DNA of 64,000 nucleotides from a virus. The notes under the pieces are model-generated. The model was not told the origin of the DNA, searched no databases, and worked only from the letters and a program-made list of their open reading frames with translations. This document shows, piece by piece, positions 30,749 through 60,859 of this stretch. Each line of letters opens with the position of its first letter. The first letter of the stretch is position 1. The position numbers and the translations under genes were made by a program. The DNA lies in IMG/VR virus record IMGVR_UViG_3300024270_000013, positions 48,575 to 112,574 of that record; one strand, written 5' to 3'.

Positions 30749-30786
30749 ACAAAAAAAATTATTTGAGAGAAAGGAGAACACTTCAT

Positions 30787-37680: not shown

Positions 37681-37705
37681 TCTTATTTGAAAATTTTTTA
37701 TAATC

Positions 37706-37742
37706 CAAGAGGAAGGAAACTTCCTCTTGGATTTCATTTATA
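37706..37742 (+). terminator. Hairpin terminator candidate
   Basis: CCAAGAGGAAGGAAACTTCCTCTTGG, a perfect 11-bp stem, followed by ATTTCATTTAT. Confidence 0.5.
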
Positions 37743-37760
37743 GAAAGGAAGGTATATAAC

Positions 37761-39671
37761 GTGGTTACTATTTTGAATAAAAATTCATCCGTTGAACTAT
37801 GGGAAAAATATGCCAAGTTATTTTCTAAGGCTTATGATGATTTAGTAAAATTAGGCAAGGTCGAGGCGGGCGGTCGTTTTACCAGTTTGGATCAATATTT
37901 TGCCCATATGGGTGATTTATTAGAAACTAATAAGCCAATGTATATGTTGTTACCTTTGGATGAAGCACCTTTCGCTGTTAATGCAAATGCAAGATCTGTT
38001 ACTATTCCTGCTGAGTTCGCTAAATGTGGCGCCGTTAAAGGAGATAATTATTGCGAGATTGCTACTTTTGTAATTGACAGATATTTTGATTATAAGGATT
38101 TGGCAGAAGCTAATATTGCTATTCAATGGGTGAATGCCAACAATGAAGAAGGTATTTCTCATATCCAATTAATTGATTTAGAAAGTGAAGAAGGTAAAAT
38201 CCGTTTCGGTTGGCCTTTAGTTGAGAATATTACTAAATATCCTGGCCCAATTAAATTCGCTATTCGTTTCTTTGTTCCAAGTGAAACGGAAGCTAATAAA
38301 TTTGATTATTTGTTAAACACTTTACCAGCTACTTTAACAGTTAAGGATGGCTTAAATGTTATTAATCCTAAGCATATTCATGAGAATGATTATAATGAAT
38401 TTAAGTCTTTTGTTAAAAACAGTCAAAATCCTGCTTATATTACTCCTGTATCCCCATTTTTTACAGAAGTAAATGGTGGCATTGATTTGGATAAATATGC
38501 TGCTATTGATCTTGACACAAATGAACTTAAATTTGAAGCTTAGGCCGTAACTTCTGATTTAGGCGATATTACTTATAAGTGGTTCTACATTCCTTCTGGC
38601 TCTACTGAAAAGCGAGAGGTTGTTGGTGGAGACGGAGTTTATGAAGTGAAATTAACTGACTATGTTAAAGTTGATTTAATCACCGATGAAAACGGTGTAG
38701 TTACTAACAAAAAAGGTTTAGATAAGTATTGGGTAAAAACTGGTAGTGATGAAGCTGCAAGTTATACTCTATATACTGGTGATTGGCCACCTGCCGCAGA
38801 TGCAGAACTATATGAAATTGTCACGTCTTTATCTTTTGAAGATAGCGAAGTTGATGTAGTTGGTGAGTATTGGGTTGAAGCGGTAAATACCATTGGTACT
38901 AACTCTGTAAATCCTGTTCCCAGCACTCATTGTATCGTTCCTGCTCCAAATGCTATGGTTTATACAAAAGATTTAAAAGCTCATGAGTTCGCAGTAGCCC
39001 CTGCCGCAGGCCAAGCTCCTAAGGCAGATTTAGCAATTGAATTAAAAGCAGATGGTAATAATCCTACTATCACCTACGCCTGGTATAAGAGCACTGCTGG
39101 TGCAGATGGCGATTTCGGTGAAGCTATCCCTGGAGCAGAAAGCGCCACTTATAGTGCTGCTGAGGCAGGCTGGTATAAAGTTGTTCCCGTTGCTCGTTTA
39201 AATCGTAAGATTGAAAGTGAAGAAAGTAATATTTGTAAAGTTACTATGCTGCCTGCTGAACCCGTTATTCAGAAAATGTCTTATAAATTAGAAACTGCAA
39301 CTGATTATACAGAATTACCATCATTGGCGGATGGCGGTACTATGTTTGATGTATATAAGTTCGGTAACATTATTAATTTAAAAGTTGAAACTGATTTAGA
39401 TAACGCTGCTGAATTAGGACTTTTATCTGAAGGTTTAACTTATGTTTGGTATGTTCAAGAACCTGATACCAACCCTCGTCAATTAACTGCCAAAGATATT
39501 GGCTCTAATACTTTATTAGAAGTTGGAACTAATTTAAATAGTGGCGAAATTAAAGTTCGATGCGTTGCTGATGGTGCTAAATATACTTATTTTTGCGATA
39601 TTATTAATACTATTCAGGGAGCAACTGCCAAAGTAAAGAGTTCTTCTTATAATACATTTACTATTGCTTAA
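37761..39671 (+). CDS. Structural protein, about 636 aa. One TAG read through at 38541-38543. Its N-terminal domain is a paralogue of the next gene.
   Basis: GTG start after GAAAGGAAGG. Pieces 37761-38543 and 38646-39671 are in the same frame. Ends at TAA. Confidence 0.6.
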
Positions 39672-40362: not shown

Positions 40363-40445
40363 GGCCAAAATAATATAAATGTTCTATGAAGTTTTTCATA
40401 ATGTATAGATGAAAAAAATATATGAGGAAAGGAGAACATTTTTAA

Positions 40446-42647
40446 ATGGCTACAGATTTAAAATTAAAAACTGGTACCATTAGTAATTATAATAATATTA
40501 CTACAAAAGAAGATGGTACCATTTATTTTGCGACTGACACTGATGGTCGTGCTTATATATATTTAAATGGAAATAATATTGTGCCAAAGTTAGCTGATCT
40601 TCGCAATGGTGGATTGGGTGTTGATTTAACAAATGCCGCGGCTTATTCAGTTCTTCTGCGCGGTAATGGTAGTTACGATACTACTTATGCAGCTCCCACT
40701 TCTGGTGCATTTTATACTGATTCTACAAGCAATAAGCCAAAATTTGGTATATTACCCGTCGCTTAGGGTGGTAGTGGCGTAACATCTATTCCTAAAGGTG
40801 CAATTCTATATGGTAATGTTTCTAGTACGACAGGAGCAATTTCTACATTATCTCCGACTACCAATGGTTATATTCTTGTATCTACTGGCGCAAATAAAGC
40901 TCCAGCTTATGTAAAACCAACAATGAGTTGGACTAATGGTTCTACTGCAGGACCTATTTTTAATTTTACATTTAATACTAAAGAAGGTGCTGAAGTAAAA
41001 TTTGCTGGCGTTGCAATTCCAAAAGCTAGTGATTCTATTTCTGGTATTGTTACTACTGATGGACAAACATTTACCGGCGAAAAAACATTTATGAGCACAA
41101 CATATGCTTCTAGCATTTATCCTAGAACAAGCGGTAGTTATAGCTTAGGTTATTATACTAGCTCTAGTGATTATAAGCTTTGGAATTAGATTCATGTTTA
41201 GCATTTAAATGTCTATGGGGCAGAAAATAAATTAATTATATAGTCTAGTGAAACTGAAACAAATATCAGCTATGAAGATAAAGGAAACGCTATTCTAACT
41301 ATTGGTAATACTGGAGATGGAACTTCTCTAGGTGATAAGGATGGTATGCTAAGATTAGCATATGGAACAGGCTATGCTTCATTATCTGCTGTTGGCACTG
41401 GTACGTATACATTGCCAAGTAGCGGTGGTATGATTATGGTACGAACCGGTGAAGTCAATAATACAACTGCTCAAACTTGGTATATTCCATTTTAGACCTC
41501 TATGTCGGTATTTGACGCGGCTTATGGCTACAATGATGGATTTAGATTATATCATTAGAATGGTACTACCTCGACGACTGCGGGAAAATCTTATTTATAT
41601 TTAGGTAATAGCACTAAAGTCGGTCTTGCAGGGAATAAGGAAGGTCGTATTTTATTATACGGAGATAATACTGGATCAACTACTATTCGTCCAAATTAGT
41701 CCAATAGCACTTCAACATACACCGTATCTTTACCAGCAGCTTCTGGTGAATTAGTTTATCATACTGAAAATTCCGCACAAGGTGGTTCTGGTCGACTAAT
41801 TTCTGTATCTGCGGCTGGTCAAGTTGTTGCAGATACTACAACTGATATCGCTAGCGATATTAAGTTAATGTATTTGAAAGATGGTTTATTAACTGCCTCT
41901 GCCGCAACCAAAGGTTCTGGCGTTAAATTAATACATTTGTCTAGCGGTGCGATTACTGAATCAACTTCTGATGTCGCCTCAGGCACTGAACTGATATATT
42001 TAGCTAGTGGTACATTAACCAAATCTACTTCAGGAGTTGCTGGTTCAAAGCAACTAATGTATTTAGCTAGTGGTAAATTAACTGCTTCTGATGCAAATGA
42101 GGGTAATGGAACAAGACCTGTTTATTTATTAGATGGTGTTATTACTGCTTCTACTAGTAGTGTTGCCACCAGTACTCAATTAATGTATATGAGTAATGGT
42201 ACTCTTACTCCATCTACTGCTAATGTCGGTAGCGCAACACAACCTGTTTATTTACTTGATGGTGTGGTAACTGCGGCTGGCGCTTACTCGTCTCTATTGA
42301 CCGCATTCAGTGGTGCTGATAGTGCAAGTGATAATACAATGTCTATTACTGTGGGTGGTACCACAGATACGGCCACTATCATTGGCGGAGTGTCTAATAC
42401 TTGGACAAATGGCACTACAAATGGTCCCACTTTAAGCACTACCGTTAATGGTATTACTGGTACTGCAGCGTAGATTCCAAATGCTTCTTATAGTTATTCC
42501 GGTGCAGTAACTACAAGTACATAGACATTTAAAGGTGTAAAAACTTTTGGTGATGGTATGAAAGTTTCTGCTGCTGGTTCTACTACTGACTGTGCGACAT
42601 TTACTTATGATGCAAGTACAGATACTTTAACTATTAGTTTCCCTTAA
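40446..42647 (+). CDS. Tail fibre, about 733 aa, with the fibre N-terminal motif and internal tandem ~20-aa repeats. TAG read through.
   Basis: RBS GAGGAAAGGAGAACA. N-terminus MATDLKLKTGTISNYNNITTKEDGTIYFATDTDGRAYIYLNG. Pieces 40446, 40923 and 41868 are in frame 0 and separated only by TAG. Ends at TAA 42645-42647. Confidence 0.65.
41880..42290 (+). repeat. Coding tandem repeats, about 6 units of roughly 20 aa, inside the fibre gene.
   Basis: KLIHLSSGAITESTSDVASG / TELIYLASGTLTKSTSGVAGS / KQLMYLASGKLTASDANEGNG / TRPVYLLDGVITASTSSVATS / TQLMYMSNGTLTPSTANVGSA / TQPVYLLDGVVTAAG. Confidence 0.6.
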
Positions 42648-42665
42648 TATAATTTTTAAAGCGAG

Positions 42666-42706
42666 ATAGATATTTTATCTATCTCGCTTTTTTTGTTTTA
42701 ATTAAA
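42666..42706 (+). terminator. Rho-independent terminator
   Basis: AAAGCGAGATAGATATTTTATCTATCTCGCTTT hairpin followed by TTTTTGTTTT. Confidence 0.75.
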
Positions 42707-42865
42707 AATACCTAAAAACATATTTTTTAGGTTTCCTAAAAAACCTCTTAAGGTCCCGAAGTGGTGGACGTTTGGACAAAAGAGGGTAATTTTCCCATCC
42801 TAATTTTCATAATACTATGAGGGGATGGATAAGAAAATTTTTTGTATGGAGAGGAGACCTTACAT

Positions 42866-43309
42866 ATGTATTCAAACTATAATTATTATCCACAGCAACC
42901 CGTGCAACAGACCCAGCAAATCACCCAATAGCAACCAATGTACCAAGTACCGAATTACTTACGGCAGGCGCCGCCGCAAGTAAATTTAAAAGGTAGATTA
43001 GTTAGCTCATTGGAAGAGGCCCGTGCAACCTCTATTGATTTCGATGGTTCTGTATTCTACTTCCCAGATTTGGCGAACAAACGAATCTACACAAAACAAA
43101 TAAATATGGATGGCACTGCTTCACTATATGTATATGAATTAAGGGAAATGCCCGTTGAAGAAGAAAAAAGCAGCTTAGTTCCATCCGTTGAGAAATTTGT
43201 TACGCGAGAAGAGTTTGAGCGGGTCCTGGCGCAATTATTGCCCCAGAAGCCAACCGAGCCGGCCGCACCCGCCCCGCAAAAAGAGAAAGTAGAACTTTTA
43301 TCATTCTAA
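42866..43309 (+). CDS. Gln-rich hypothetical protein, about 147 aa. One TAG in a poly-Q context.
   Basis: RBS GGAGAGGAG. N-terminus MYSNYNYYPQQPVQQTQQITQ[TAG]QPMYQ…, so the TAG lies inside a Q run. Ends at TAA. Confidence 0.55.
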
Positions 43310-43319
43310 GGAGGTATGA

Positions 43320-43574
43320 ATGATGTATCCAGTAGATCCCAATGTTTTAATTTCAATGATTAGGTCTGGTAAAAACCCTCAATAGTTAATGTTATCCGTG
43401 CTTTAGGGTCAGGCCTACAATAATCCCCTCGGAAGAAATCTCCTGAGTTTAGCTCAACAGGGTCGCACTGCGGAACTAGAGAAAGTAGTTCGCAATATTT
43501 ACGCTCAATAGGGCGGTTAGGATTTCGACTCTGAATTTGAAGCCTTCAAACGTGCATTAGGCTACAACAACTAA
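43320..43574 (+). CDS. Small hypothetical protein, about 84 aa, with 4 in-frame TAG.
   Basis: RBS AAGGAGGT immediately upstream. The frame is open to TAA 43572-43574 apart from TAG. Confidence 0.35.
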
Positions 43575-43594
43575 AATTTAAGGAGGAAAAAATT

Positions 43595-44302
43595 ATGTTT
43601 AATGGAAAAGGTTACAATTTATCTGACATCGCCGCTGTAACTGGCCGCAATGGTGACGGTATGTTCGGTGATAATGGCTGGTGGATCATTTTATTGTTCT
43701 TATTTGCTGGTTGGGGCCGCGGTGGATTCGGCGGCTTTGGCGGAGGCGTAGAAGGCGTTCCCGCAACCCAGGCTGATGTAAGAGCAGCTGTCGATCAGCA
43801 GACTTTGATTTCCAAATTGGATAATCAGACTTATGGCTTGGCAGATAGCACTTACGCTTTGAATAACTCTATTATGAGTGGCTTCCATGGCGTAGATACT
43901 GCTGTTTGCACTCTTGGCTATAATATGCAGAATGGTTTCAATACTATTGCTCATCAGATTAGTGATTGTTGCTGCGAGACCGGTCGCGCAATTGAGCGTG
44001 GCTTCGCAGACACCAATTACAATTTAGCAACTCAAGCTTGCGACACTCGTCGCGCTATTGCTGATAGCACTCGTGATATTATTGATGCCAACAATGCAGG
44101 CGTACGCTCTATCTTAGACTTCTTGACTAATGATAAGATCGCTACCTTGCAGGCAGAGAATCAGGGCTTGCGCTTTGCCGCATCTCAGGCCGCACAGAAC
44201 GCTTACTTAGTAAACGAATTGCGTCCATGCCCCGTTCCCGCCTATACTGTACCTAATCCCTACTGCTGCAATACCTATTATGGTGGCTGCGGCGCATTCT
44301 GA
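43595..44302 (+). CDS. Membrane-anchored Gly/Cys-rich protein (235 aa). No TAG.
   Basis: RBS AAGGAGGAAAAAATT-ATG. Hydrophobic helix WWIILLFLFAGW followed by GRGGFGGFGGG. The C-terminus is Cys-rich (DCCCETG…CDTRR…CPVPAYTVPNPYCCNTYYGGCGAF). Ends at TGA. Confidence 0.65.
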   Translation: MFNGKGYNLSDIAAVTGRNGDGMFGDNGWWIILLFLFAGWGRGGFGGFGGGVEGVPATQADVRAAVDQQTLISKLDNQTYGLADSTYALNNSIMSGFHGVDTAVCTLGYNMQNGFNTIAHQISDCCCETGRAIERGFADTNYNLATQACDTRRAIADSTRDIIDANNAGVRSILDFLTNDKIATLQAENQGLRFAASQAAQNAYLVNELRPCPVPAYTVPNPYCCNTYYGGCGAF

Positions 44303-44318
44303 TAAGGAGGTCTGATTT

Positions 44319-44741
44319 ATGGAAATTATTGCTAATGCTGTATAGACTGTCCCAGCAAATCAAAATGTTTATTTCACAGACACCGTTATTTGTGGCAATA
44401 TGTCCATAGGTCATAGAGACGATTCTGGTTTGGTGACTCTTCGCGGAGTCACCAACTCCCAGTGCCGCGCTCGTTTTATGGTGACTTTTGGCGGCAATAT
44501 TGCTGTTCCCACAGATGGAACTGTCGGCCCAATCTCTTTGGCTATTGCTATTGATGGTGAGCCCGTTCCTGCTACTACTATGATTATTACCCCCGCCGCA
44601 GTTGAACAGTTCTTCAATGTGAAGTCAAGTGTATTTATTGACGTTCCTCGCGGATGTTGCGTTAGTGTTAGCGTGAAGAATACATCTACTGACGCAGTAG
44701 TTGTTCAAAATGCGAACTTAATTGTTACTCGTGAAGCATAA
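44319..44741 (+). CDS. Hypothetical beta-rich protein, about 140 aa. Possibly a jelly-roll/TNF-like fold resembling exosporium BclA/ExsF-type C-terminal domains. One TAG at codon 9.
   Basis: RBS AAGGAGGTCTGATTT-ATG. Alternating beta-strand pattern …VPTDGTVGPISLAIAIDGEPVP…VFIDVPRGCCVSVSVKN…NANLIVT. The resemblance is from memory and is not verified. Confidence 0.55.
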
Positions 44742-44755
44742 GGAGGGGTGACTGT

Positions 44756-45394
44756 ATGAGCCATGAAAAATTAAAATGGATGAAAGATTCATTAATTTGT
44801 GTAGTTGAAAATCAATTATGTAACCTTAGCGAAGTAGATACCGAAGAGCTTGGAGAAGCTATTGATATGATTAAGGATTTGGAAGAAGCTATCTACTATT
44901 GCACTGTTACTGAAGCGATGAATCATCAAGGCAAAGAAATGAAAATGAAAAATGGCGACCATCATCAGAAGCCTGAGGATGATCGCATGTATTATAGTGG
45001 TGGCTATCCTGCAATGTATGCGGATGGCGGTCGTAATCGTCGCGCAGATGGCACTTTCTATGCCGATGGTGGTCAGAATCATATGGGTGGTACCCAGAAT
45101 TACGCTGATTCTGGCGACATGAGTGGTACTAATAGTTCCAATGGTCGTAACTACTATGACGGGCCTATGTGGCGCGACGAGCGCGAAGGCCGCAGTTACA
45201 ATAGTCGCAGAATGTATATGGAAGCCAAGGAAATGAAACGAGATAAAGCTTCTCAATTACGTGAATTGGAGAAGTATATGCAGGAGTTGTCTCAAGACAT
45301 TACTGAAATGATTGCAGATGCCTCTCCAGAAGAAAAGCAGTATCTTGAGAAGAAAATTACCGCACTGGCTTCTAAGATCGGTCAGATGAAATGA
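44756..45394 (+). CDS. Low-complexity Gly/Asn/Tyr/Arg-rich protein (212 aa) flanked by helical ends. No TAG.
   Basis: RBS AAGGAGGGGTGACTGT-ATG. The central region …YYSGGYPAMYADGGRNRRADGTFYADGGQNHMGGTQNYADSGDMSG… is low complexity. Ends at TGA in an ATGA overlap with the next gene. Confidence 0.65.
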   Translation: MSHEKLKWMKDSLICVVENQLCNLSEVDTEELGEAIDMIKDLEEAIYYCTVTEAMNHQGKEMKMKNGDHHQKPEDDRMYYSGGYPAMYADGGRNRRADGTFYADGGQNHMGGTQNYADSGDMSGTNSSNGRNYYDGPMWRDEREGRSYNSRRMYMEAKEMKRDKASQLRELEKYMQELSQDITEMIADASPEEKQYLEKKITALASKIGQMK

Positions 45395-45702
45395 TTATCA
45401 ATGGAGTTGTCTGGCGAGTCCGATTGGTCTCGCCAGCACATCCTTTGTTACTAACTCCGTGGAAAACTCATGCTCTTGGAGTCTGTGATAAAGTCACTCA
45501 GACTATTTGCGTTGATAAGACCCTTTCCCCTCAACTTTTAAAAGAGGTCTTATGTCACGAAATCGTACACGCATTTATGTATAGTTACATGATTGACTTG
45601 TCCTATAGCGAGGAAGAGTTAGTGGCAGAATTGATGTCATAGTATGGAGAGGATATATTGTTAGAAACGAATGCAATTTATAATGGAATCAAAATGAAAT
45701 AA
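45391..45702 (+). CDS. Small HExxH protein, about 103 aa; putative zinc metallopeptidase-like. One TAG read through at 45640-45642.
   Basis: Motif LCHEIVHAF. The frame continues past the TAG for 20 codons to TAA 45700-45702. Confidence 0.45.
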
Positions 45703-45704: not shown

Positions 45705-45750
45705 AAAGGCTAGTTATGATTAATTTCATAACTAGCCTTTATTTTTTTTA
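45705..45750. terminator. Bidirectional rho-independent terminator
   Basis: GGCTAGTTATGATTAATTTCATAACTAGCC hairpin flanked by an A-run upstream and a T-run downstream. It serves convergent genes on both strands. Confidence 0.7.
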
Positions 45751-46329
45751 TGATGAAGGCACCCACGATGAGCCATTCCAAACATAGGGCATTGCCTATA
45801 TCCATGATGAACCATTCCAAATATAGGGAATTGCACTAACCCAAGAAGAACCATTCCAAATACGTACAGCTCCTGCGTCGCTCACTGATCCTCCATAATA
45901 TGAAGTTCCCCAAGTACCGGCGCACAAAACAGCAGTACTCCAATTGGGTATTCTAAATGTCATTTGTACATATACAGTTGCTCCTGGATTAACTAAAACA
46001 ATATCATTAAAAGTCCATTCACATTTTTTCATATTGTCATAAGTGGAATTATAACTAATATTATTTATTGTAATTTCACTAGAGCTAACAGTTTTACCTG
46101 TACTATCCGTAATGGAAGCTGTGATATAATATGTATTACCATTACCTGTCATACCTCCATATGTGCCGCTACCAGTACTAAAATACATAAAACAACTATT
46201 AATTTTTACTGGCTTGCCAGTGTCATTGTAATAGACAATCATTTGTCCACGAGTGGTAGAACCGGCTGCGGGAACCCAATAACTAAAATTACAACCGTGA
46301 CCTTCGGTGCTTACAATAGACCATCCCAT
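45748..46329 (-). CDS. Tail-fibre-like/receptor-binding-like protein on the opposite strand, about 193 aa, with C-terminal WNGSSW repeats. One TAG read through.
   Basis: Own RBS AAGGAGG before ATG 46329. C-terminus …VRIWNGSSWVSAIPYIWNGSSWI[TAG]AMPYVWNGSSWVPSS, ending at TAA. Confidence 0.55.
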
Positions 46330-46492
46330 AGATATCTTTCCTCCTTTTTCTCATTTTATCTATATAGATATAAAAAATCTAAATAAATTATTATTATATT
46401 TTGGCCTAAAATAAGAAAGAATAATAATAAAAAATTTAATATTATATAGAAATATAACTCTTTTTATTTTGAGAGAAAGGAGATTTTAATAT

Positions 46493-48229
46493 ATGGGAAC
46501 TTTGAAAGTTAATGGTAGTGTAAATATTTAGGATTTACTTACTTTAAAAAGTGGCACAGATGCTTACACCACACCTTCTATTGCTTTTGGAACTGATGTA
46601 CGAATTGGTTGTGGTTCAAAAAATTTTGGTATTTATTCCAGTAATAAAATTTATTTTAGACCAAACAATGGAACTTTAGGCTATTCTGATGGCATTGAAC
46701 TTTCTACTACATCGTTAATTCCTACAAAAAATAACACCGTTACATTAGGTGATTCAACGCATAAGTGGTCTAGTATATATGCAACTACATTTCATGGAAA
46801 TTTAAGTGGTAATGCTGATACTGCAAGCAGATTGCTTAATAAATACAATATTAGTGGTGATAGCCATAGCTTAGCCTTAAAAGCCGCATTTGATACTTAT
46901 AAAAATTCAACCCCAAAAGATGAGTTCTTAACATATTATTCTTCAGCTTATAATAATGGTAGTATGTATATGGGATATTTTATTAGCGGATATGATTCCA
47001 CTCCGTATGGAGGCTTTTATGTAGCTCATTATAATACTCCTTATTATGTTGGTATCTAGTATGGTAATTATGAACAATAGACTATATTAACTAGCTCTAA
47101 TTATGCGTCTTGGTGCGCCCCTGCATCACATACACATAGCTATTTACCATTAAGCGGAGGTACATTAACTGGAGCTGCAGCGATTAATTTTCCAGCGGGG
47201 TCAGTATCTGTTTCCGCAAGCACTCCAATGTCTTTATCTTACGGAAGATTAGCTTGTTATGGTACTTTATATATTAACGCAAATACTGATAATAGTGGAG
47301 ATGAATATGTCGTCATTACTGCGGGAAAGGGATTAAGTTCTTCTAATAGTGATGGTTTGGCTATCGGCTCTTCTAGCCTTACTTGGTAGGGATCTACTGT
47401 TTTAACCACCGGTAATTTTCCATCTTCAAGTTCTTTGGCTCGGTAGACAGACATGTGGATTAGTGCAGCTAGTTTGGATGTAAATACTTATTATCCAGTA
47501 GTAATTTCTTTACCAGCAAATGGTTTAAATAGAATTAAATTGGCAGTACAATTAAATAGTAGTACAAGACCTTCTTGGAGTACGCACAATAGAGGATTTA
47601 CTTCTAATATTGATGTAGAAATTATTTAGGCAGGATGGGGAACAGTTAGTCCATTTAGATATTTACTTCGTCAAGATGATTATAGCTTTGCTAATGTGAA
47701 ACCTGCTTATTTTGCGGGACAATTAAGTAATGCAAGTTTAGCTGTTTTTTATGTACGGGGTGGAGGATCTTATAGATTTATTTGTGACTGGGCAGATGCA
47801 TCTATATCGTTGAGAACGTCATCAACAGATTATAATGGATAGACAGTGGCACCTACAACGAGCACTTCTGTATTCCATAGCGGATCTAAGTCTCATTTGT
47901 ATTGTAATGTTGATTATGCTTCAGGCGCAGGTAATGCTGATACCTTGGATGGAAACCATGCTTCTGCTTTTGCATTAGCTTCTCATTCTCATTCATATCT
48001 TCCGCTGAGTGGTGGTACAATGAGTGGAACTATTATTACCCCTGGTAATGATAGTTCTGTTATTCGACCACCTAAAAGTAATTATGATCAAATTGGAGCT
48101 TCTGACTATTTATTTTGGAAGATGTTCGCTACATACGGTTATTTTAACTATGTTGTTACAACAAATTATGGTACTAGTGCTCCAACATCAACTTCTTTAC
48201 CTGTCGGTACTATTTATTATAAAATTTAA
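46493..48229 (+). CDS. Tail fibre/receptor-binding protein, about 578 aa. TAG read through.
   Basis: RBS GAGAGAAAGGAGA. Pieces 46832-47059 and 47846-48229 are in the same frame. Fibre-type motif WSSIYATTFHGNLSGNADTA. Ends at TAA. Confidence 0.6.
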
Positions 48230-48290: not shown

Positions 48291-48338
48291 TTAGGGTCTG
48301 GGAGGTAATTGAATACATTGTTCATAATAAATCTTTGC

Positions 48339-48731
48339 CTATCCGTTGCCACCTAATCCGGTATATAATTTATAGAATTCATCTAATTGAGTTCTTTGCT
48401 CCATTGTAATATATCCTTGAGCCAAGAATCCTTTACATAACTGAACTAAACGGAAACGATAAGAGGCAATAATTAGATTCATATGAGATTGCTCAATATT
48501 CTTTGCATCTCGAATATGCTTTCTGATTTCTTCCAGCTCTTCATAAATTGGTTCTAATTTGATTTCAATAGAGTTTTCAATCTCTTTCTTTTCTTTTTCA
48601 GCAGCCAAATCTTTGGCACTTTGTAATTCTTTTTTCAGTTTATCACCATGCCACTTGGCCCAGCCCATAACGGCTGCACTAATCAAAGCAAATAAGATCT
48701 CTAAACCCCATTCTGCTAATAAAGCTTCCAT
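48339..48731 (-). CDS. Putative holin-like membrane protein (130 aa)
   Basis: N-terminal hydrophobic helix (LEILFALISAAVMGWAKW) followed by a charged coiled coil. Holin-like architecture only; there is no family-level match. Confidence 0.4.
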   Translation of the reverse strand: MEALLAEWGLEILFALISAAVMGWAKWHGDKLKKELQSAKDLAAEKEKKEIENSIEIKLEPIYEELEEIRKHIRDAKNIEQSHMNLIIASYRFRLVQLCKGFLAQGYITMEQRTQLDEFYKLYTGLGGNG

Positions 48732-48797
48732 AAAAAACTTTATCCCCCTTTCTACTTCTCTAACGATACTAAAGAAGCAGATAGGGGGATTATCTCA

Positions 48798-49292
48798 TTA
48801 GGACCAATCGAAGACATTACTTATGTCATAGTAATACAACGCAATACAAAGTGAGTCAGCCTCGTCTTCGGTGCATTTAATTCCGTATTCTTTTAAAACA
48901 TATGCTTGTGCCATTTTCTTTTCTTGCGGACGGCCTTTTCCAGCAATCTTGAAATGAGCCTTCCATTGAATTGGCATAGCGATACTATATGGCATTTTAA
49001 TTTCTGTTAATGTCTCGTGAACTACTCCGAAAGCTTCTGCTAAAATTTTAAATGTTTTAACACCTTTTTCTTTACTGCCATTTACATCTTGCAATTGAAT
49101 ATCTTCAAATACAACTTCATCAATGTCATATGTATCAATTAATTCAAGCACTTTTTTTCTTAGCTGTAATAATCTATCACCAAGGTCGTCACCGATACAT
49201 TCAAAATGACTAACCTTTACAATTTTTCCGTCATCAAGAACGGTATATCCAGTAGTGCGGGAAGATTGATCTAATGCTAAAATTTTAGCCAT
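48798..49292 (-). CDS. ruvC: RuvC-like Holliday junction resolvase
   Basis: MAKILALDQSSRTTGYTV… matches the N-terminal catalytic motif of RuvC (ILGIDPG…). The C-terminal EDEADSLCIALY matches the RuvC active-site region. No TAG. Confidence 0.7.
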   Translation of the reverse strand: MAKILALDQSSRTTGYTVLDDGKIVKVSHFECIGDDLGDRLLQLRKKVLELIDTYDIDEVVFEDIQLQDVNGSKEKGVKTFKILAEAFGVVHETLTEIKMPYSIAMPIQWKAHFKIAGKGRPQEKKMAQAYVLKEYGIKCTEDEADSLCIALYYYDISNVFDWS

Positions 49293-49824
49293 TGGTAGAT
49301 CCGAAGCCGCCGACGCGTTCACCAGAAGACACATCGTCTTCAGTTACGCCATAGGGTAAGATAATACCCTGTCCAATTGCTTCGCCTTCATGGATTTGAA
49401 TATTGAAGGGAGATAGATTATAAATCTGTAAGAAAATTTCACCCTCATTATCGGGATTGTTATAATAGTCAGCATCAATAATGCCAACTCCATTAGCAAG
49501 CATAAGCCAGTATTTCAAAGGAGAAGAACTGCGTACACTCAACTGCAAGAAGGTGCCAGGATCGAGCTTACACTTCATTCCAGTAGAAACTAAAGTGGGT
49601 CTATACTTAGTCAACTTAGTAAACTCAGCCATTTGATCGAGAGTAACATACTCTTCTTCCCCGACAGTCCATACTTCCTCAGCTTCTCCAGCAAGTTGAA
49701 ATACGGAAGGAATAATATAATCCTCTGCGGCGACCAGGTCATATCCTGCGGATTGACTGGTCTTGCGCACGGGCATTACGATTTCTTTGTCTGCATAACG
49801 GGATACTTTCTCGAACTTTGCCAT
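49285..49824 (-). CDS. dut: dUTP diphosphatase (dUTPase)
   Basis: Motifs SAGYDL, GIIDADY and GGFGSTNG at the C-terminus. RBS GAGAGGGG. No TAG. Confidence 0.85.
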   Translation of the reverse strand: MAKFEKVSRYADKEIVMPVRKTSQSAGYDLVAAEDYIIPSVFQLAGEAEEVWTVGEEEYVTLDQMAEFTKLTKYRPTLVSTGMKCKLDPGTFLQLSVRSSSPLKYWLMLANGVGIIDADYYNNPDNEGEIFLQIYNLSPFNIQIHEGEAIGQGIILPYGVTEDDVSSGERVGGFGSTNG

Positions 49825-49826
49825 AT

Positions 49827-50071
49827 TCTTAGCCCCTCTCGTAACTCACAGTGAAGACATCTTCAGGGTCTTTCTCTGCCGTAAAAACCTTGGTGGCTTG
49901 CACGACCATATATTCCTCAATAACTTCACCCTTAGCTTTGATCTACTTCACTTTATAACTGAAGCCAACAAGATCAAATGCGGGATCGTTTAGAAGCTCT
50001 TCATGCAGGACTTCTACAGCTGCCTCATCGGGTACTCTGTAAGTATCAACAGCTTTCAATAAATATCTCAT
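49827..50071 (-). CDS. Hypothetical protein, about 81 aa, with one in-frame TAG.
   Basis: ATG 50071 preceded by GAGGT. The open frame ends at TAA 49827-49829 and is not in the ORF track because of the TAG. Confidence 0.4.
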
Positions 50072-50072
50072 A

Positions 50073-50342
50073 TTATTTTACCTCAATCACAATATTATTT
50101 TTATGACTATAATTCATTTTAGAATACGCCAAAATGTCTTCTGACACCATGTGAGCGTAAGATAGATTGCCGCCTAGATGTACATTCGGAATACCGGTTT
50201 CCGCACATACCGCATTGATTACTTCTGGTAACTCTTCAATAGTAGCAATAGCAACACATTCTAAACTACCAGTTTCAGTATCATATACATAAATTTTTTG
50301 ACTTAAGTCAAAAATATGTAAATCACAATATATTTTTTTCAT
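50073..50342 (-). CDS. Hypothetical protein, about 89 aa.
   Basis: ATG 50342 preceded by GGAGGATAAG. Confidence 0.5.
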   Translation of the reverse strand: MKKIYCDLHIFDLSQKIYVYDTETGSLECVAIATIEELPEVINAVCAETGIPNVHLGGNLSYAHMVSEDILAYSKMNYSHKNNIVIEVK

Positions 50343-50343
50343 C

Positions 50344-50808
50344 TTATCCTCCAACAACTTTTACATCATTTGCAATGGGACGTAAATAAAGTACCAACTC
50401 TTTTTCATCTTGTTTAGAAATTAATGTAAATATAATTTCTTCGTTATTATATATAATTTCACGAACATATCCTAATTCTTCTAATGCTTTAATAACACCA
50501 TCTGCGAGAGTATTATAGTCTTTCGGATAATGTATTGCAATAGAAGTAAATATATAATAATATTTTGCATTTAAACCGGTCATAATAGAATCAGTTAAAA
50601 TGTATATGGTACCATTTCGAACTTTAAAATTATTAATATTAATCTTTGCCTATTCTAATTCTTTTATATCATCTAAGAGACCTAAAATTGAACTAGTAGA
50701 ACGATTAATTTCTTTATAGTGTCCAGTATTGCCAATTTCTTCAAGAGTTACTTTCTAATACTTAACACCATCGTAAGTTGTAATTGTTTTTGTTTCAGCC
50801 ACAATCAC
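50344..50808 (-). CDS. Hypothetical protein, about 154 aa, with 2 in-frame TAG.
   Basis: ORF-track piece 50344-50583 extends upstream in frame across two TAGs to a GTG at 50808 that overlaps the TGA of the upstream gene (GTGA overlap). Confidence 0.45.
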
Positions 50809-51299
50809 TCACCAACCTGTACAATTCCCATGTCATAGGGGAATAGGTATAAGCAAGTGGGTTCATTCTCATATATAACCCAAACTTCAATAGCATCAGT
50901 AGCTTCAGTTAAATCGATCGCTTTCACTATACCAATATTTTGAATTACATCAACTACTTCACGAGCAAATGCGATATGCTCTTTAATCTTAAATACAGTG
51001 AAATAAGAAATCTCCTTACCGTAAAGCATATAATAATCATTATGCCAATCAGTGTCAAACTTTGTCAAAGTTTCAGACACTCGATCCCAGTCGGTCAAAT
51101 CGGGTAGCTGTGCAATAATTTGCTTATTCATATCGTAAAGTCCCATTTCTACACCAGAACTTTCCATTTTGAATTCATGCCAATTATCATTATGCCAGAT
51201 GTAATATTTGCCATCAGTAGCATTTTGCATAATTTCACCTTCAATGGGAATAAAATTCACTTGAGACAAATCCATCTTTTTGATTTTTTGTTTACCCAA
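50805..51299 (-). CDS. Hypothetical protein (164 aa)
   Basis: Probable TTG start 7 nt after AAAGGAGGG. No TAG. Confidence 0.5.
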   Translation of the reverse strand: MGKQKIKKMDLSQVNFIPIEGEIMQNATDGKYYIWHNDNWHEFKMESSGVEMGLYDMNKQIIAQLPDLTDWDRVSETLTKFDTDWHNDYYMLYGKEISYFTVFKIKEHIAFAREVVDVIQNIGIVKAIDLTEATDAIEVWVIYENEPTCLYLFPYDMGIVQVGE

Positions 51300-51338
51300 A
51301 TTATAACCCTCCTTTATCTCATTTATATAAATATTATA

Positions 51339-51821
51339 TCATTTTTTTTCGGATAAGTCAATAATACGCTGATTTCGTGAGCCTCTCATATTCAGTGTAA
51401 TATCTCGCTCTTCTTCAATATATGGACCATCAATTAAAACATCAGCTAATTCTAACGCTCCGCGCACTTGCGGATGGTTGCGATGTTGTAATTCTTCATA
51501 GGTATATCCGCTCCATATATACACCTTGACTCCTGGCACCTTATCTTTGACCTCTTTGATGACTAAATAGGTAAGAAAGGCGTTTTCGTCACAAAGAGGC
51601 TCGCCGCCCATGATACACAGATCACGCTGGATACCTTGGGCGGTGAGGCCGGTAATAATTTGATTTAGGGTGTCAGAAGTAAATTCTTTGCCTCGACCAA
51701 ACTCCCAAGTCTCTGGGTTGTGACAACCCTTACATCTGTGGGGACATCCCTGTACGAAAAAGCTCACACAAAGACCGGGGGCCGCAGTAATATCATTCAA
51801 AATGAGACCACTGTAATTCAT
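51339..51821 (-). CDS. nrdG: Anaerobic ribonucleotide reductase activating protein (radical-SAM)
   Basis: CPHRCKGC radical-SAM cysteine motif near the N-terminus. RBS AAAGGAG. Located immediately downstream of nrdD. Confidence 0.8.
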   Translation of the reverse strand: MNYSGLILNDITAAPGLCVSFFVQGCPHRCKGCHNPETWEFGRGKEFTSDTLNQIITGLTAQGIQRDLCIMGGEPLCDENAFLTYLVIKEVKDKVPGVKVYIWSGYTYEELQHRNHPQVRGALELADVLIDGPYIEEERDITLNMRGSRNQRIIDLSEKK

Positions 51822-51870
51822 ACGAACTTACTCCTTTCTAATAGCGTAGCTAATTCGTAGTTAGCTACAA

Positions 51871-54075
51871 TTAGGAAAATTGTGAATGTTTGACTCTATG
51901 TTCGACCTCTGACTGTTTTCCCTTGTTGAAATGGCGATAGTCAGTAGTCAAATAACCAGTTACACGACGCAACTGCTGAATATTGTGGCTGCCACACTCG
52001 GGACAAGCATCATTGAACTCACCCTAGAAGCCGCAATCTAAGCAGGAGTCAATGGGGAAATTGAATGCTAAATAAGGAATATCTAACTCCTTGAAAGCAT
52101 AATCAATAATCTGTTCGATAGCCTTGGTATTCTTTACGAAAGTGCTATCAAGCTCGACATAAGTAATACATCCACCAGTAGGATACTTACAGAATGGAGC
52201 CTCAACCGCAAGCTTATCGAAGATACTAATCTCATGCCATACGGGTACATGGTGGCTATTGGTTAAGAACTCATGGTCGGTAACATTAGGAATAACTCCA
52301 TATTGCTTACGCAGAGCCTTTGCAGCGGTGTGGCATAGACCTTCCGCGGGGGTAGCGTAGCAAGAGAAGTTCAAATCATGACGCTCAGAAGCTTCCTTAG
52401 CATATTCATTGATACGCTTTACAACCTTCAAAGCGAACTCGTGTACTTTTGGATCTTCGGCATGATTCTTACCAAACAATGCTTGACACATTTCGGCAAT
52501 ACCAATGTAACCCATAGCCAAAGTTCCGTGCTTCAATGCTTCGTAGTTAGATACTCGGCATTTCTGGGCGTCTTTCATAGTACCATTTTGATACATGAAA
52601 GGACCAGCCTCAGGAGGCTGATTTACCATAATATCAAAACGCTCCAAAAGACCCTGTTCGCATAACATCAATAAATCCTCGAATGCAGACCAGAAGCCAT
52701 CTAAATCCGGGGTCTCACGCTTACCTAAACAGATACCATATTCGATACCTAACTTTGGTAAAATCATAGTATTGGGGCACAGGTTACCACGACCAACGCG
52801 GTTGTAGGAATCAGTATGACGGTCATAACCTAACATTGTGCGGCAGCCCATTGTGGCGAAGTATGTGTCGGGATCATTAGGATCTTCGTGCGCCTGTGAA
52901 AAATCGCAGTTGACGAAGTTAGGATAAATTCTCTTACTCAAAGATTCGATAGCTAATTGCTTCAAATCGTAGTTTGGATCTTCTGGATTAGCATTACATC
53001 CTTGTTTATACTGGAAAATACTAATTGGGAAGATAGGAGTTAAATGGTGCTTACCAACGCCAGATAAAGAAGCTCTTAACATCTTCTCACTTACAAAACG
53101 ACCCTCGGTAGAAGTGTCACGACCGAAGTTGATAGAAGTGAAAGGAACCTGGCTACCCGCACGAGACTCCAGAGTATTTAAGTTATGATACAAAGCTTCA
53201 CTTGCCTGGATACCTTCACGCTCTAGCTGACGCATAGCAAACTTATAAGCAGGAGTATCCTTAATTGCTTCATTGTCAATTACGCAAGGCTCATACTTAG
53301 CCTTTAATACAATTTCAGCATCTTCCTTAGACAAGCCTTCAACATCAGTGAAGTAGTTACGCATATGCTTGTAGAAGCTCTTGGCAACATATGGAGCCAA
53401 GTCATAGTCAGCATGGACTGTACCAACGCCACCAAATTGAACCTGGGACTGGCATTGGAAAATAACTGCATATTGCTGACAAGCAGTATCATATTTTGAT
53501 GGTGGACGCACATCGCCGTTGCGAGTTACGAAACCATCAGTAAAAATCTTTTTGAAATCAACGAACAAGCAGTTATGTTCGCCAATATTTGTTTTCTCAT
53601 TATCGTGTTGATATAACAACATATCCTTATGAGCTTGCGCTACTTCGGGGGATAGAGTATAATCCAACGCAATTATCTTCTAAATGTCTGCGGAAGCTTC
53701 CTTCTCACGACCGGAGAAGCTCTTCTCATCAACATTCGCATTGGAATTTTCAACAGCAGTAGCTTCAGTTCTACGCATAACTGCCTTTAATAATTTACTT
53801 TGACGCATACGAGCCTTACTGCGCTCGTCACGATATAAAATGTAAGCCTTGGCAACTTCTGGATATTCACTCTTCATCAAATATCCTTCAACCAAGTCTT
53901 GAATTTGTTCGACGGACATATCGACACCGCGACTACCAATTAGATCTGCGATTTCTTCAGCAGTATCGGATTCATACACGGAGCCGTATGCGCTAATCAT
54001 AGCCTTATTGATGGCATTTACAATCTTATCGGGATTGAATAGAACTCTTGTACCATCTCTTTTAATTACATGCAT
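51871..54075 (-). CDS. nrdD: Anaerobic ribonucleoside-triphosphate reductase (class III), about 734 aa, read through 2 in-frame TAG.
   Basis: N-terminal ATP cone (MHVIKRDGTRVLFNPDKIVNAI…), then TAG at 53677-53679, then the catalytic core (ORF 52024-53667), then TAG at 52022-52024, then the C-terminal CPECGSH Zn-ribbon and glycine-radical motif RVTGYL. Ends at TAA 51871-51873. RBS GGAGGT 7 nt before ATG 54075. Confidence 0.85.
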
Positions 54076-54162
54076 ACTAATTACCTCCATTATAAAATAC
54101 TATATCTTGTGGAGAGCGTAAAAACTCTCTACAAAATATAGCGTTTTATCTTGATCTATTAA

Positions 54163-54754
54163 TCAATGTCGTCCTTGCGCGAGCATGTCCTCGATCTGGC
54201 CTGCAATCTGCTCGGCGTTCGCATAGAAATCGTCAAAAGTCTCGTTGACAACTTCGGTGTAGTCAAAATCAATATCAGCAAAATCTTCTTCATCAGCATT
54301 GAAGCGACGAACAATCTCTTTAACGTCGGGATTTTCCTCTCGACTAAGCTGACGATATAAGCGCTGTTTATCAGAAACAGTTACCCAATAAACAGTGACT
54401 TCACAATCCGGCCGGTCAAGCAACTGCCGCACACCCGCAGGATTGAAAACACCGATATTGATAATGCCATCGCTGCGTACAGACTCATAACTAGTACCAT
54501 ACCACCAATTGTTGAAATTAGTAAATTCCAACATTTCATCATTCATAATTTTCATTGCAAAATCATCGGGATGATAGTAATAGTAATTGATGCCGTGAGC
54601 TTCGCCCTCTCGCATTGGTCTACTGGTACAGCTTACGATCTCGTGGACCTCAGAAATAATTTTCTTTTCAGCGAGTAATTTTAATACCTATTTCATCAAT
54701 GAGTCTTTACCAGCGCCGCCTTTACCCATAAAAAGAACTATTTTATACATTTTC
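54163..54754 (-). CDS. Guanylate-kinase-like nucleoside monophosphate kinase, about 196 aa, with one in-frame TAG.
   Basis: P-loop GKGGAGKDS, then TAG, then the TSRPMREGEAHGINYYY guanylate-kinase motif. RBS GAGGAGG before ATG 54754. Confidence 0.65.
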
Positions 54755-54964
54755 ATTGTCCTCCTCAAACTCATATTGAATTTTTCCGGGGACTTCATGC
54801 GCCCAGAAGGTAGCACGACCATCGCAGTCGGGGTTACTGCAACGGAATGGGTATTGCTCGGGGTAGGTAGAATATACCATCCCCGTGCTCACCATTTTAC
54901 TACCACACTTATCGCAGAACGCTTCTAATACATATGCTTTTTTTACATATCTCTTAGTCAACAT
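54743..54964 (-). CDS. Small zinc-ribbon protein (73 aa)
   Basis: CDKC…CSNPDC C4 arrangement. RBS AAGGAGG. Overlaps the 3' end of dnaE. Confidence 0.45.
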   Translation of the reverse strand: MLTKRYVKKAYVLEAFCDKCGSKMVSTGMVYSTYPEQYPFRCSNPDCDGRATFWAHEVPGKIQYEFEEDNENV

Positions 54965-57900
54965 CTTCTGCAGTGCCTCCTTGATAACGACTATCTTGTA
55001 ATACTAAGTCACCATTATCCAAGATCTCATTGATACGATATAGCTGATGTCCGCCAGTAGAAGCATACTTCTTAGAAACAAAATCATCACCGCTGCGGAT
55101 TCCCGTTACGACGATCATATTACCGCGGTTGAACCAACTCTTCTCAACGACGTGCTTGACGCCATCTGCGCCACGCTCGGAGATCTGCTTATCGAACATC
55201 GCAAAATATTCTTTTCTGAATTTGACATTTACAACACCTGTTGTTGTCAAAATGGTAACTGTACTCTTAGTCTTATTCTTTGCAATACAAGTTCCGCAAA
55301 TACGATTCAAATGAAAGATATGAATGTCTTTGCCTCCCTTATGGAATGTCTTTTCAATGATCGGATCTTCTGGCAATAGGTTGAAATCAACAAAGCCATA
55401 TTTATCATTATTGACATTTTGCAATTCGTGGTCATGATAATAGAAGCACAAGACTTCCATCTCCCACGCAGAGATAGTACCCTTCGCATATTTATTCCAA
55501 TCTTCCATGAAGATTTCTGTATTCAGCGCATTTAAGATTGTATCTTTTTCTGCGGCGATCCACTTTCTGAATACATCCATATGCTTCTGGTATACATTAT
55601 CCCAAGCCTTAGTTTTTATATACCAAGACACATTATCTGTTGTCATAAGATTTTCGCAATCAATCTCCTGCAAGAAAGCGATTGCTCTCGTATCAAGACT
55701 ATACATATCCTTATAAGCATACTTATCAGCCTTAGTAATTGCCTTCAAATATCTATTGAACTCATATACTCGACGAGCGAGAATTTGCTCTTCAGTTTTT
55801 TCAGGCAATAATCCGTGCTTGATAAGTCCACCCATATTTTGTAAGGTGATACGACTCTTCTTATCACAAGTCTCCCAGATATACCAAGCCATTACAAATT
55901 GACGCTCTTCCATATCGTCAAATGCGCCACCCTTGATAAGGGCAATCATAGCTTGCTTACTGGGTCTAACTCTATTCAAGAAATCTTTTGGAGAGCTATA
56001 AGGTCTGTTTTCAATAATGCTGGCAATCAAATCATCGCCCACATTCAACATACCTTTCAATCCAAAAAGAATTCGATTATTTTCTACATCTGGAGCAAAT
56101 CCAAAATCTGATTTATTAATGTTTGCCAAGCTAACTTTAATTCCTGCACCAGTGATATCACCGATTGCTTTGGCAATTTTTCCATAATCAGTTGAACCTC
56201 CTGCTTCTTCATCAGTTGCACCACTGTTTACAATCAAACAAGCAGTATTCCAATAAATTGGATTGAAATTCATAACAAAGTAAATTGATTGAATACCAAC
56301 AAAAGAATAAGGCAGAGAGTGGTTCAGACTAAATGCATATCCTAACTGGGGTGCAATTGCATTTTCCCAGAAATAATTTGCCGACTGAACCCGGTCAAAT
56401 TTACTATAGACCTGTTCGCGCAATTCCGGAATCTTACTCATTTGCTTCTTACCAACAATCTTTCTCGCATTATTGGCTTCACCTAATGTGAAATTTGCAA
56501 CATCCATAAGTAATTCCATCATCTGCTCCTGGATAGCACAACAACCCCAGTATTGGTCACAATGCTTATGCATTAGCGCAATCATATTTTGATCCAGACC
56601 AGCTTCGTGCATTTCTCGATCAAATTCTTCCAATCCTCGCTTTTGGATACGAACATATCTATCTTGCTGAGATTCCTTGCCTTTTTCAGACATAAGTCTC
56701 ATCATTGCGTTCGCCGCAGTCATCTCCATAGGATTCTTTGGTTTCAACTTTTTTGCAATAGCTAATCCAACGCCAGTGCTGAACTGGAACACATCCAGAA
56801 CATCACCGGCCGCAAGATGCTCCCAAATGCGGGGATCAGTTGTATCAATCACTTCTGGATGAATATACTTATTATATAGATTACGCAAACCAATATCTTC
56901 AATTACTTTATCTGCGGTAAGTAATTCAAAACATTTGATAATCTTATCTGAAATTTCAGTTACCAAGAAGTCATACTTGGTATCACCTGCGGCCTCTGCT
57001 TTATGCAGGTCATAGCAGGTAATCAAATCTCCACTTGGAGTTCTCATAAATGCCGCAGTTTCAAACGGGTCACTACCATATAAGATAACACCCGAAGCGT
57101 GAGAAGAACGCTTATTTACTAGTCCTTCAATTGACTGAATAATAGCCAATAGACCAGGATAGTTATTTACTTCTCGAATGAATGGAGCAACGGGTTTTCT
57201 ATCTTTCTCCTCATTGCCGTTGATAACATCACTAATCGGCCATAAGAATCCACGCTCTTGGGGGATTAGAGAAGACATGTACTGGGCTTGATCGACATCG
57301 ATTCCATCTGGGAAATCCTCGCTTCGATAACCGCGGCAAGCCGTGAGTACAGCTGATTTCGTTCCTTCTGTTCCGAAGGTTGCGACCTGGATAAGTCCCA
57401 ACTCTCCACGCTCTTTACGAATTGCTTCAAAAATTGCGGGTCGTTTTGATGGAGCGAGGTCAATGTCAATATCGGGCAACTCGGCTCTCTCCTTATTAAG
57501 GAAACGCCAGTAAGGTAGATTCCATCTGATGGGGTCGAGCTGCGTGATGCCCAAGAGGTAGTTAGACAAAAATCCTGTGGCCGAGCCTCGACCTGGGCCA
57601 ACAATTGAGCCACACTCCCAGAATAGGTCGATGTAATGCTTGAAGGTGTTGAAATAGGCGAATAGACAGTCATCTAATTTCTCTCCAATATCTAAAATAA
57701 CATCAGCTTCGGTTTCTAATCTCTGCCAATATTCAACTTTATCTTGTAAGCCTTTTTCATTTAGGCTCTTCGCGCACTCATATAGCCAATATCTCTCTTG
57801 GACGTTACCATCAACTAACAAATGCGCTAAACATGGATAGAACTTATTTAGGTTCCAATCGATTTCATATGGAATGTACTCTTGAATTTCTCGTTCAGAA

Positions 57901-58847: not shown

Positions 58848-58882
58848 TCGATTATCCCTTTCAATTTGATTTCTTATACTAT

Positions 58883-60845: not shown

Positions 60846-60859
60846 TCTTTCCATCTCCT

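Follow-up and report, generated by a model that had tools for sequence, protein, structure and literature searches.

The stretch analysed here, referred to as the window, comprises 64,000 nucleotides of a viral genome (positions 48,575 to 112,574 of IMG/VR record IMGVR_UViG_3300024270_000013), and its subject is a block of six co-oriented genes, g1 to g6, on the plus strand at 42866-45702. Comparison with other phages showed that this cassette is a single accessory module of tailed phages, complete in itself and strictly colinear, and not a set of tail or fibre parts. The original prediction had described the six proteins as unlike standard tail components, and this is upheld: those with PHROG matches fall into families without annotated function, and none has a Pfam or PDB-sequence match to virion proteins. 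Homology to virion proteins and conserved synteny as part of a tail module were both looked for, and neither was found. The open reading frames (ORFs) were called with TAG as a sense codon and are listed in Table 1.

A tblastn search of GenBank phages placed g3 and g4 next to each other in phages unrelated to one another, among them Butyrivibrio phage Ceridwen, Dulem viruses and many unannotated gut phage contigs, and g3 homologues were also present in Clostridium perfringens phages and a crAss-like phage. Local searches showed that g1, g2, g5 and g6 travel with this pair. When the g3 alignment was scanned over one genome per GTDB species, 80 loci were recovered, nearly all in Clostridia with some in other Bacillota; the hosts include Oscillospiraceae, Lachnospiraceae, Acutalibacteraceae, Anaerotruncus, Enterocloster and Erysipelotrichaceae-type metagenome-assembled genomes (MAGs). 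Iterated hidden Markov models (HMMs) were used to count the genes at 96 other loci in unrelated phages and prophages. All 96 contained g3, and g1 was present in 87, g4 in 65, g5 in 55, g2 in 54 and g6 in 28. A second g2-like family occupies the same position in 31 loci, a different Cys-rich beta protein fills the g4 slot in 26, a shorter variant of the g5 design occurs in 17, and another small protein lies in the g6 slot in 14. Every detected homologue of the six genes shares the strand of g3 and follows the order g1-g2-g3-g4-g5-g6, with the exceptions of four loci that have a g6-family match upstream of g1 and a few duplications. Eight loci hold, inside the module, a small protein with a transmembrane segment and a coiled coil that is BhlA-like by eye and has no family match. 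A megablast search of the region 36-52 kb against GenBank phages gave no match, and the literature on phage BclA-like cassettes, phage spore-coat genes and C. perfringens virion proteomes yielded no description of the module.

The Cys-rich beta protein of the g4 slot was considered as a diverged g4, and this was rejected on an hhalign probability of 0.4%; a profile search with the alternative D-slot protein against PDB sequences returned only coiled-coil noise. Two further proteins were seen near the module in other phages and do not occur in this window. One is a protein of approximately 125 amino acids (phrog_3754) with a conserved D-C-x-V-R-A motif, which adjoins the module in 43 loci, mostly just upstream of g1 (for example, L001 7068-7445 and L002 6337-6717). 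The other, of about 69 amino acids, resembles the helix-turn-helix (HTH) of sigma-70 region 4 and is found upstream of the module in about 20 loci.

The cassette is also found on a related 176-kb contig (L021), where its place is again the junction at which the structural operon meets the convergent RuvC and dUTPase genes. That contig has neither of the fibre-like genes 40446-42647 and 46493-48229, nor the minus-strand gene 45748-46329. The cassette proteins are 61-84% identical between the two phages, versus 26-37% for neighbouring structural proteins. Because L021 has the cassette at the same junction without the fibre genes, the cassette is a conserved and lasting part of this lineage, whereas the surrounding fibre genes are gained and lost. 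The earlier picture of an island between fibre genes is therefore true of this window but partly incidental.

Following the suggestion that the cassette be looked for in related phages, we found that its position varies among the 96 loci in which it recurs, while it is always co-oriented with late genes. In an abundant phage of ~42 kb and in Dulem 35 it has the MuF/gp7-like minor head gene on one side and the scaffold gene on the other, a slot that also carries HNH, TnpB, GIY-YIG, Bro-N and antirepressor genes. A second site is downstream of the endolysin and holin genes, as in Ceridwen, Dulem 33, the C. perfringens phages, the crAss-like cr116_1 and an extrachromosomal B. thetaiotaomicron phage, and at other loci the module adjoins recombinases or integrases. 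In the phage studied here, which belongs to a jumbo-phage lineage of ~200 kb, it forms the end of the late structural operon.

The module is also abundant. Searches with g3 and with g4 each returned at least ~8,000 clusters at 90% identity, a lower bound set by the 8,000 candidates scored, with many of the matches on contigs of ~200 kb, and an exhaustive HMMER scan of public metagenomes yielded 1,937 clusters of g3 at 50% identity, 833 of them with E values below 1e-10. Many genomes of crAss-like phages, presumed to be virulent, contain the g3 family, as does the cultured Bacteroides phage C3_41T2LP. In the Bacteroides-phage versions, the genes after g3 encode a CC-motif beta protein, a beta/coiled-coil protein, a small R/D/Y-rich protein and a PolyVal-type metallopeptidase, a line-up of the same kind as the g1-g6 module. 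Members of the g3 family were also found in viruses assigned to Methanomassiliicoccales (L102 5878-6759, NC_092586.1; BK063680.1); these have two CCC motifs but no Cys-Gly tail, and the other module genes are missing there. Only three of 72,556 plasmid records matched (one extrachromosomal phage, one large Vescimonas replicon and one 2.4-kb fragment), so the module is nearly exclusive to phages, and these infect hosts of many types. It is tied neither to one type of cell envelope nor to one lifestyle, being carried by temperate phages and by phages assumed to be virulent.

The six genes are bracketed by two strong intrinsic terminators with 15-bp hairpins, as had been listed, and the features ascribed to the proteins (poly-Q, TAG counts, transmembrane segment with Gly and Cys, low complexity and HExxH) were all seen in the ORFs. 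The start of g6 overlaps the end of g5 by 4 nt. The downstream terminator closes both the cassette and the convergent minus-strand gene 45748-46329, which encodes 193 amino acids with three C-terminal WNGSSW repeats and weak similarity to DUF2510.

Table 1. Coordinates of the six genes and associated features within the window
Feature	Position	Strand	Description
Upstream intrinsic terminator	42658-42700	+	15-bp stem 42658-42690, 3-nt loop, T run; closes fibre-like gene 40446-42647
Cassette 5' leader	42701-42865	+	165 nt; structured, conserved in L021
g1	42866-43309	+	147 aa; Q/P/Y-rich N-terminus; 1 TAG (codon 22)
g2	43320-43574	+	84 aa; 4 TAG
g3	43595-44302	+	235 aa; hydrophobic WWIILLFLFAGW then GGFGGFGGG; 9 Cys including CCC; Cys-rich tail; 0 TAG
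g4	44319-44741	+	140 aa; all beta; 1 TAG (codon 9)
g5	44756-45394	+	212 aa; G/N/Y/R/D low-complexity centre; 0 TAG
g6	45391-45702	+	103 aa; HEIVH motif; 1 TAG (codon 84)
Downstream bidirectional intrinsic terminator	45705-45750	both	15-bp stem 45705-45740, T runs on both strands
GAGAGAAAGGAGA leader sites	1345-1360, 3255-3270, 12745-12760, 19165-19180, 30760-30775, 40425-40435, 46470-46485

TAG is a sense codon throughout the window: with read-through, ORFs of at least 100 amino acids add up to 80 kb instead of 54 kb, and the longest ORF measures 9.4 kb instead of 3.7 kb. The TAG at codon 9 of g4 (44343-44345) falls in an alignment column that is Q in every homologue, the homologues being from standard-code phages. 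At the position of the TAG at codon 22 of g1 (42929-42931), 57 of 85 homologues have Q. The TAG columns of g2 and g6 are uninformative on the amino acid. The g4 and g1 columns suggest that TAG is most probably read as Gln in this phage. No tRNA gene, including any suppressor tRNA, was found in the 64-kb window. An in-frame ATG is present at codon 25 of g1 (window 42929-42940), three codons past its sole TAG; if the TAG were not suppressed, a product of 123 amino acids without the Q-rich N-terminus could still arise from it. The original prediction had also pointed to the absence of TAG from g3 and g5 among TAG-containing neighbours. The count is correct, but we rejected it as a special signal because other late genes are equally TAG-poor (0 TAG in the 788 codons of 28270-30636 and 1 in the 587 codons of 37908-39671). 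The product of 28270-30636 is Ala/Thr/Glu-rich and coiled-coil-looking, and the gene, with a GC content of 0.39, is an outlier amid TAG-rich neighbours. Two apparent gaps, 25353-25721 and 37681-37907, read as coding (one holds ...MANYVKFRRGT...), and the genes that follow them probably begin earlier, at non-ATG codons, the ORF calls having been limited to ATG.

A comparison of base composition and codon usage with the flanking fibre-like genes, which had been proposed as a check, showed that the difference is real. GC content is 0.39-0.48 in the cassette versus 0.35-0.38 in these neighbours, and GC at third codon positions (GC3) is 0.35-0.45 versus 0.19 in the two fibre-like neighbours. The window as a whole is divided into two codon-usage compartments. 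Most late genes of the plus strand (1-48229) have a GC3 of 0.15-0.22 and 0-19 TAG per 1000 codons (12-19 in the TAG-richest), and the genes of the minus strand (48291-63973; NrdD, radical SAM, RuvC, dUTPase and others) have a GC3 of 0.38-0.42 and 0-5 TAG per 1000 codons. Since the GC3 of the cassette equals that of the phage's own minus-strand, early-type genes at 48-64 kb (0.38-0.42), its composition is atypical only against late genes. Across genomes, the GC content of the module exceeds that of its flanks in 89 of 91 loci, by a median of 3.6 points, and follows flank GC closely (r 0.95, 91 loci); GC3 is above that of the flanks in 41 of 45 loci. A rise that is seen in nearly every locus and tracks the flanks in this way is mostly an intrinsic property of the module, whose proteins are rich in Gly, Ala, Cys and Arg, perhaps together with a codon preference. 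We therefore rejected it as proof of recent foreign origin.

The cassette also differs from many late genes of this phage in how it is headed. A stereotyped GAGAGAAAGGAGA leader stands before many operon-leading late genes. Twelve intergenic gaps were examined, 11 of them in the late operon and one ahead of 46493, and in 7 the gene that follows is preceded by this leader. The cassette genes have plain AAGGAGG ribosome-binding sites in its place. The leader between the upstream terminator and g1 (5120-5280 in L021) folds more stably than shuffled versions (z -3.1), and its last ~110 nt are nearly identical in L021, though the g1 protein is only 61% identical. A promoter scan of the 165 nt found no sigma-70-like site above background, and a search of Rfam gave no match to a known family. 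This leader may be a regulatory RNA or a phage-specific promoter.

The protein present at every locus, g3, has an N-terminal tail, a hydrophobic anchor (residues 29-41), a Gly/aromatic linker, a region of long helices of ~150-190 amino acids that includes the Q..CCC motif, then the motif RPxPxPAY and a Cys-Gly tail. Its invariant columns comprise a W-flanked hydrophobic segment, the Gly/aromatic linker, Q..CCC, SQ..Q, RPxPxPAY and the terminal Cys-Gly. Hydropathy analysis predicted a single hydrophobic segment, near the N-terminus. An AlphaFold2 (AF2) model built from an alignment of 83-100% identical sequences had a mean predicted local distance difference test (pLDDT) score of 44 and was used for secondary structure only; helices were predicted at 29-38, 59-114 and 118-207. 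The protein matched phrog_16490 (1e-47), a family without annotated function, and a profile search against PDB sequences returned only coiled-coil noise. Bacteroides and archaeal viruses have long g3 proteins with an N-terminal extension, and we asked whether g2 could be its counterpart, split from or fused to g3; this was rejected because the HMM scores were at noise level.

The g4 protein had been described as beta-rich and reminiscent of the C-terminal domains of BclA and ExsF, and fold searches bore this out: it is a stand-alone TNF/C1q-type jelly-roll beta-sandwich of 140 amino acids that superposes on TNF/C1q domains. Its nearest solved structures are the C-terminal domains (CTDs) BclA-CTD and F-BclA-CTD and ExsFA/BxpB (PDB 1wck, 9h38, 7r1m, 8d02 and 9h3d). 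Other matches were PRD1 P5, the fibres of cyanophages A-1(L) and A4, the phi812 knob and the TM4 receptor-binding domain, and stand-alone proteins of ~140 amino acids with a TNF-like fold are common in uncultured phages. The family has an invariant PxGCC motif and matches phrog_20016, again without annotated function. There was no Pfam match at E<=1 and no NCBIfam match at E<=0.1, and a profile search against PDB sequences gave nothing relevant.

The small HExxH protein, g6, is plausibly a minimal zincin, in keeping with the motif noted earlier (HEIVH): all 16 homologues compared retain H56, E57 and H60 of HExxH and E75, the Glu 15 residues downstream. The best match among PDB sequences, a weak one, was the 110-amino-acid minigluzincin selecase MJ1213 (E value 0.0045), followed by IrrE and WLM proteases. 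Pfam scores for DUF6782 (18.9 bits, cut-off 27), M78 (16.3 bits, cut-off 22) and SprT-like were below the cut-offs, and the PHROG match, phrog_1233, has no annotated function. With selecase, projannalysin and the ImmA/IrrE (M78) proteins g6 shares its size of ~100 amino acids, HExxH and a downstream Glu, as well as the lead-in '...TI.I...L......vL.HEL.H' that characterises these small zincins. It differs from them in that the match is weak and below the Pfam cut-offs and in having no ImmR-type HTH partner.

The remaining three proteins carry conserved short motifs and have no detectable relatives of assigned function. In g1 the Q/P/Y-rich N-terminus precedes a conserved domain that is small and of beta type (V..AKA..V...G....F.D.....IY.K.....G), and the protein ends in a charged or coiled-coil tail; it matches phrog_21718, which is without annotated function, and its profile search against PDB sequences gave coiled-coil noise only. 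Small and probably helical, g2 is rich in Q, N, M and L, while g5 is by inspection helical at its N-terminus and coiled-coil-like at its C-terminus, around the low-complexity centre; no Pfam, PHROG or NCBIfam family matched either protein. None of the six proteins, nor any associated protein scanned, had a significant Pfam or NCBIfam match, and PADLOC gave no match at E<=0.01 for g1 to g6 or two associated proteins. Inspection of g1, g2, g4, g5 and g6 revealed no N-terminus resembling a signal peptide.

Taken together, the reading that we favour, and hold tentatively, as possible rather than probable, is that of an autonomous late-expressed module whose products assemble into a Cys-rich complex at the host membrane as infection draws to a close. 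The in-frame TAGs in g1, g2, g4 and g6, the position on the late-gene strand and the module's own terminators suggest that it is made late in infection, when production of these four proteins would require TAG read-through. Through its single hydrophobic anchor g3 would insert in the host cytoplasmic membrane, and its helical, Cys-rich domain would nucleate a complex with the other five proteins. As these partners have no signal peptide, assembly would take place on the cytoplasmic face. There g4 might act as a trimeric adaptor of the TNF/BclA-like type, and g1 and g5, which have disordered and coiled-coil parts, as scaffolds. The small helical g2 would assist g3, and g6 would be a mini-zincin with one of the partner proteins as its substrate. 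The assembly would serve a late function that is independent of envelope type, for example, control of egress or of lysis timing, or a membrane-bound maturation step. A function that benefits the host through lysogenic conversion is less likely. Several observations weigh against this proposal. No homology to proteins of known function links the module to membrane, lysis or egress, and its carriers are equipped with ordinary holins and endolysins as well. With 12-17 residues the hydrophobic segment of g3 is short, the membrane topology is tentative, and the AF2 model, at pLDDT 44, is unreliable. The TNF-like fold in phages is mostly a receptor-binding or decoration head, and the location within the head-gene block in one abundant lineage fits a virion role equally well. 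Finally, the proposed interactions among the six proteins rest solely on conserved gene order.

These last points lead to the main rival, which we consider possible but doubtful: a portable virion accessory, in which g4 trimers would decorate the capsid or tip an auxiliary fibre with the helical domain of g3 as the stalk, g1, g2 and g5 would be assembly helpers and g6 a maturation protease. The use of the TNF/C1q-like fold as a phage receptor-binding or vertex head (PRD1 P5, the phi812 knob and others) and the frequency of stand-alone g4-sized versions in uncultured phages agree with it, as do the constant co-orientation with structural genes, the MuF-scaffold site, the fibre-like genes on either side in this window and the near absence from plasmids. 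However, none of the six proteins matches a virion-protein family in PHROG, Pfam or PDB, a membrane-type anchor would be unusual in a decoration protein or fibre, and the particles of siphophages, crAss-like phages and ~200-kb phages would all have to offer a generic docking site. The conservation of g3 and g4, far above that of adjacent genes (84% versus 26-37%), is also unlike the usual tips for host recognition. A lysis-control device, with g3 as a large single-pass holin, antiholin or spanin-like protein and the other proteins as accessory regulators, appears distinctly unlikely. The tail of g3, its one transmembrane segment, helical Cys-containing domain and Pro-rich end recall phage T4 holin T and the lambda i-spanin Rz, which likewise have one N-terminal anchor, two long helices with a break and conserved cysteines; several phages have the module directly downstream of their holin and endolysin genes, and eight loci include the BhlA-like protein. 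There is, however, no detectable homology of g3 to T or Rz, which lack its Gly/aromatic linker, invariant CCC motif and Cys-Gly tail, and no match of g3 to a holin, antiholin or spanin family in Pfam, NCBIfam or PHROG. Because the carriers infect hosts that are monoderm, diderm or archaeal, a spanin role in particular cannot be general; many instances are distant from lysis genes, and six genes are many for such a job.

That the block might be a moron was raised in the original prediction, and it does have the marks of a moron-type cassette: terminators flank it, its composition differs from that of its neighbours and its site varies between phages, in slots shared with Bro-N, antirepressor, HNH and TnpB genes. 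Lambda bor and lom and HK97 gp15 are likewise terminator-flanked, compositionally distinct inserts of variable position in or at the end of a late operon, and the HK97 gp15 exclusion moron is located among tail genes. It differs from classical morons in consisting of six co-evolving genes rather than one, in its presence in phages taken as virulent and rarity on plasmids, and in having no sigma-70-type promoter of its own that we could detect and a GC content adapted to each resident genome. That it acts as a classical moron which aids the lysogen or infected cell, whether by excluding superinfecting phages, by a toxin or bacteriocin or by anti-defence, seems quite improbable. No PADLOC match and no toxin or immunity domain in Pfam or NCBIfam was found; the module is present in crAss-like phages, presumably virulent, and in this ~200-kb phage; and most copies appear long-resident rather than recently acquired, since module GC tracks the local genome. 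Judged by what is known of recoded phages, the need for TAG read-through would tie four of the genes to the late phase, too late for exclusion to be of use. Least probable of all, and in our view highly improbable, is the link to spore coat and exosporium that the original prediction had suggested, under which the proteins, produced in a host that sporulates, would become part of the spore surface. It has in its favour the shared globular fold of g4 and the BclA and ExsFA proteins of the B. cereus group, the Cys-rich, Q-rich and G/Y/R-rich character of the proteins, the absence of signal peptides, as in coat proteins made in the mother cell, and the predominance of Clostridia among the hosts. 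Yet g4 has only 9-17% sequence identity to BclA and ExsFA; no Pfam or NCBIfam model of the BclA (including BclA_C), ExsF, GerQ or Cot families matched any of the six proteins; and no collagen-like stalk is encoded, there being no GXY run in any of them. The exosporium leader peptide motif docks into ExsF (PMC12357932), and no cassette protein carries that leader (no match to TIGR03720). The cassette is encoded by phages, the genes sit in lytic late operons, and a survey of sporulation genes in gut phages mentions no coat or exosporium genes. Nor is the module restricted to phages of spore-formers: carriers include phages of Butyrivibrio, Bacteroides and Erysipelotrichaceae-type 'Bacilli' MAGs, all hosts that we take to be non-sporulating, as well as crAss-like phages, and g3 extends to archaeal viruses. 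The spore connection was therefore not supported.

The TNF/C1q jelly roll, the mini-zincin and the behaviour of an accessory cassette each belong to known classes, and it is their combination, the gene order and the prevalence that are undescribed in the literature searched. It is of interest to speculate, although we consider it unlikely, that the module specifies an unrecognised phage structure, a Cys-cross-linked, membrane-anchored assembly of a TNF/BclA-fold trimer, disordered scaffolds and a mini-protease that is erected late in infection. If so, phages of Bacillota, Bacteroidota and perhaps methanogenic archaea would share an assembly of exosporium-like construction that would serve egress, particle maturation or protection of the phage. 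Some carriers are in culture, namely Butyrivibrio phage Ceridwen, several C. perfringens phages, among them XP41-N3 and HMD-PC1, and Bacteroides phage C3_41T2LP. The order of the genes is held across phages that share nothing else, and the module is far better conserved than the structural genes next to it. Common, conserved and almost confined to phages, it is therefore probably important in the lytic cycle of gut phages.

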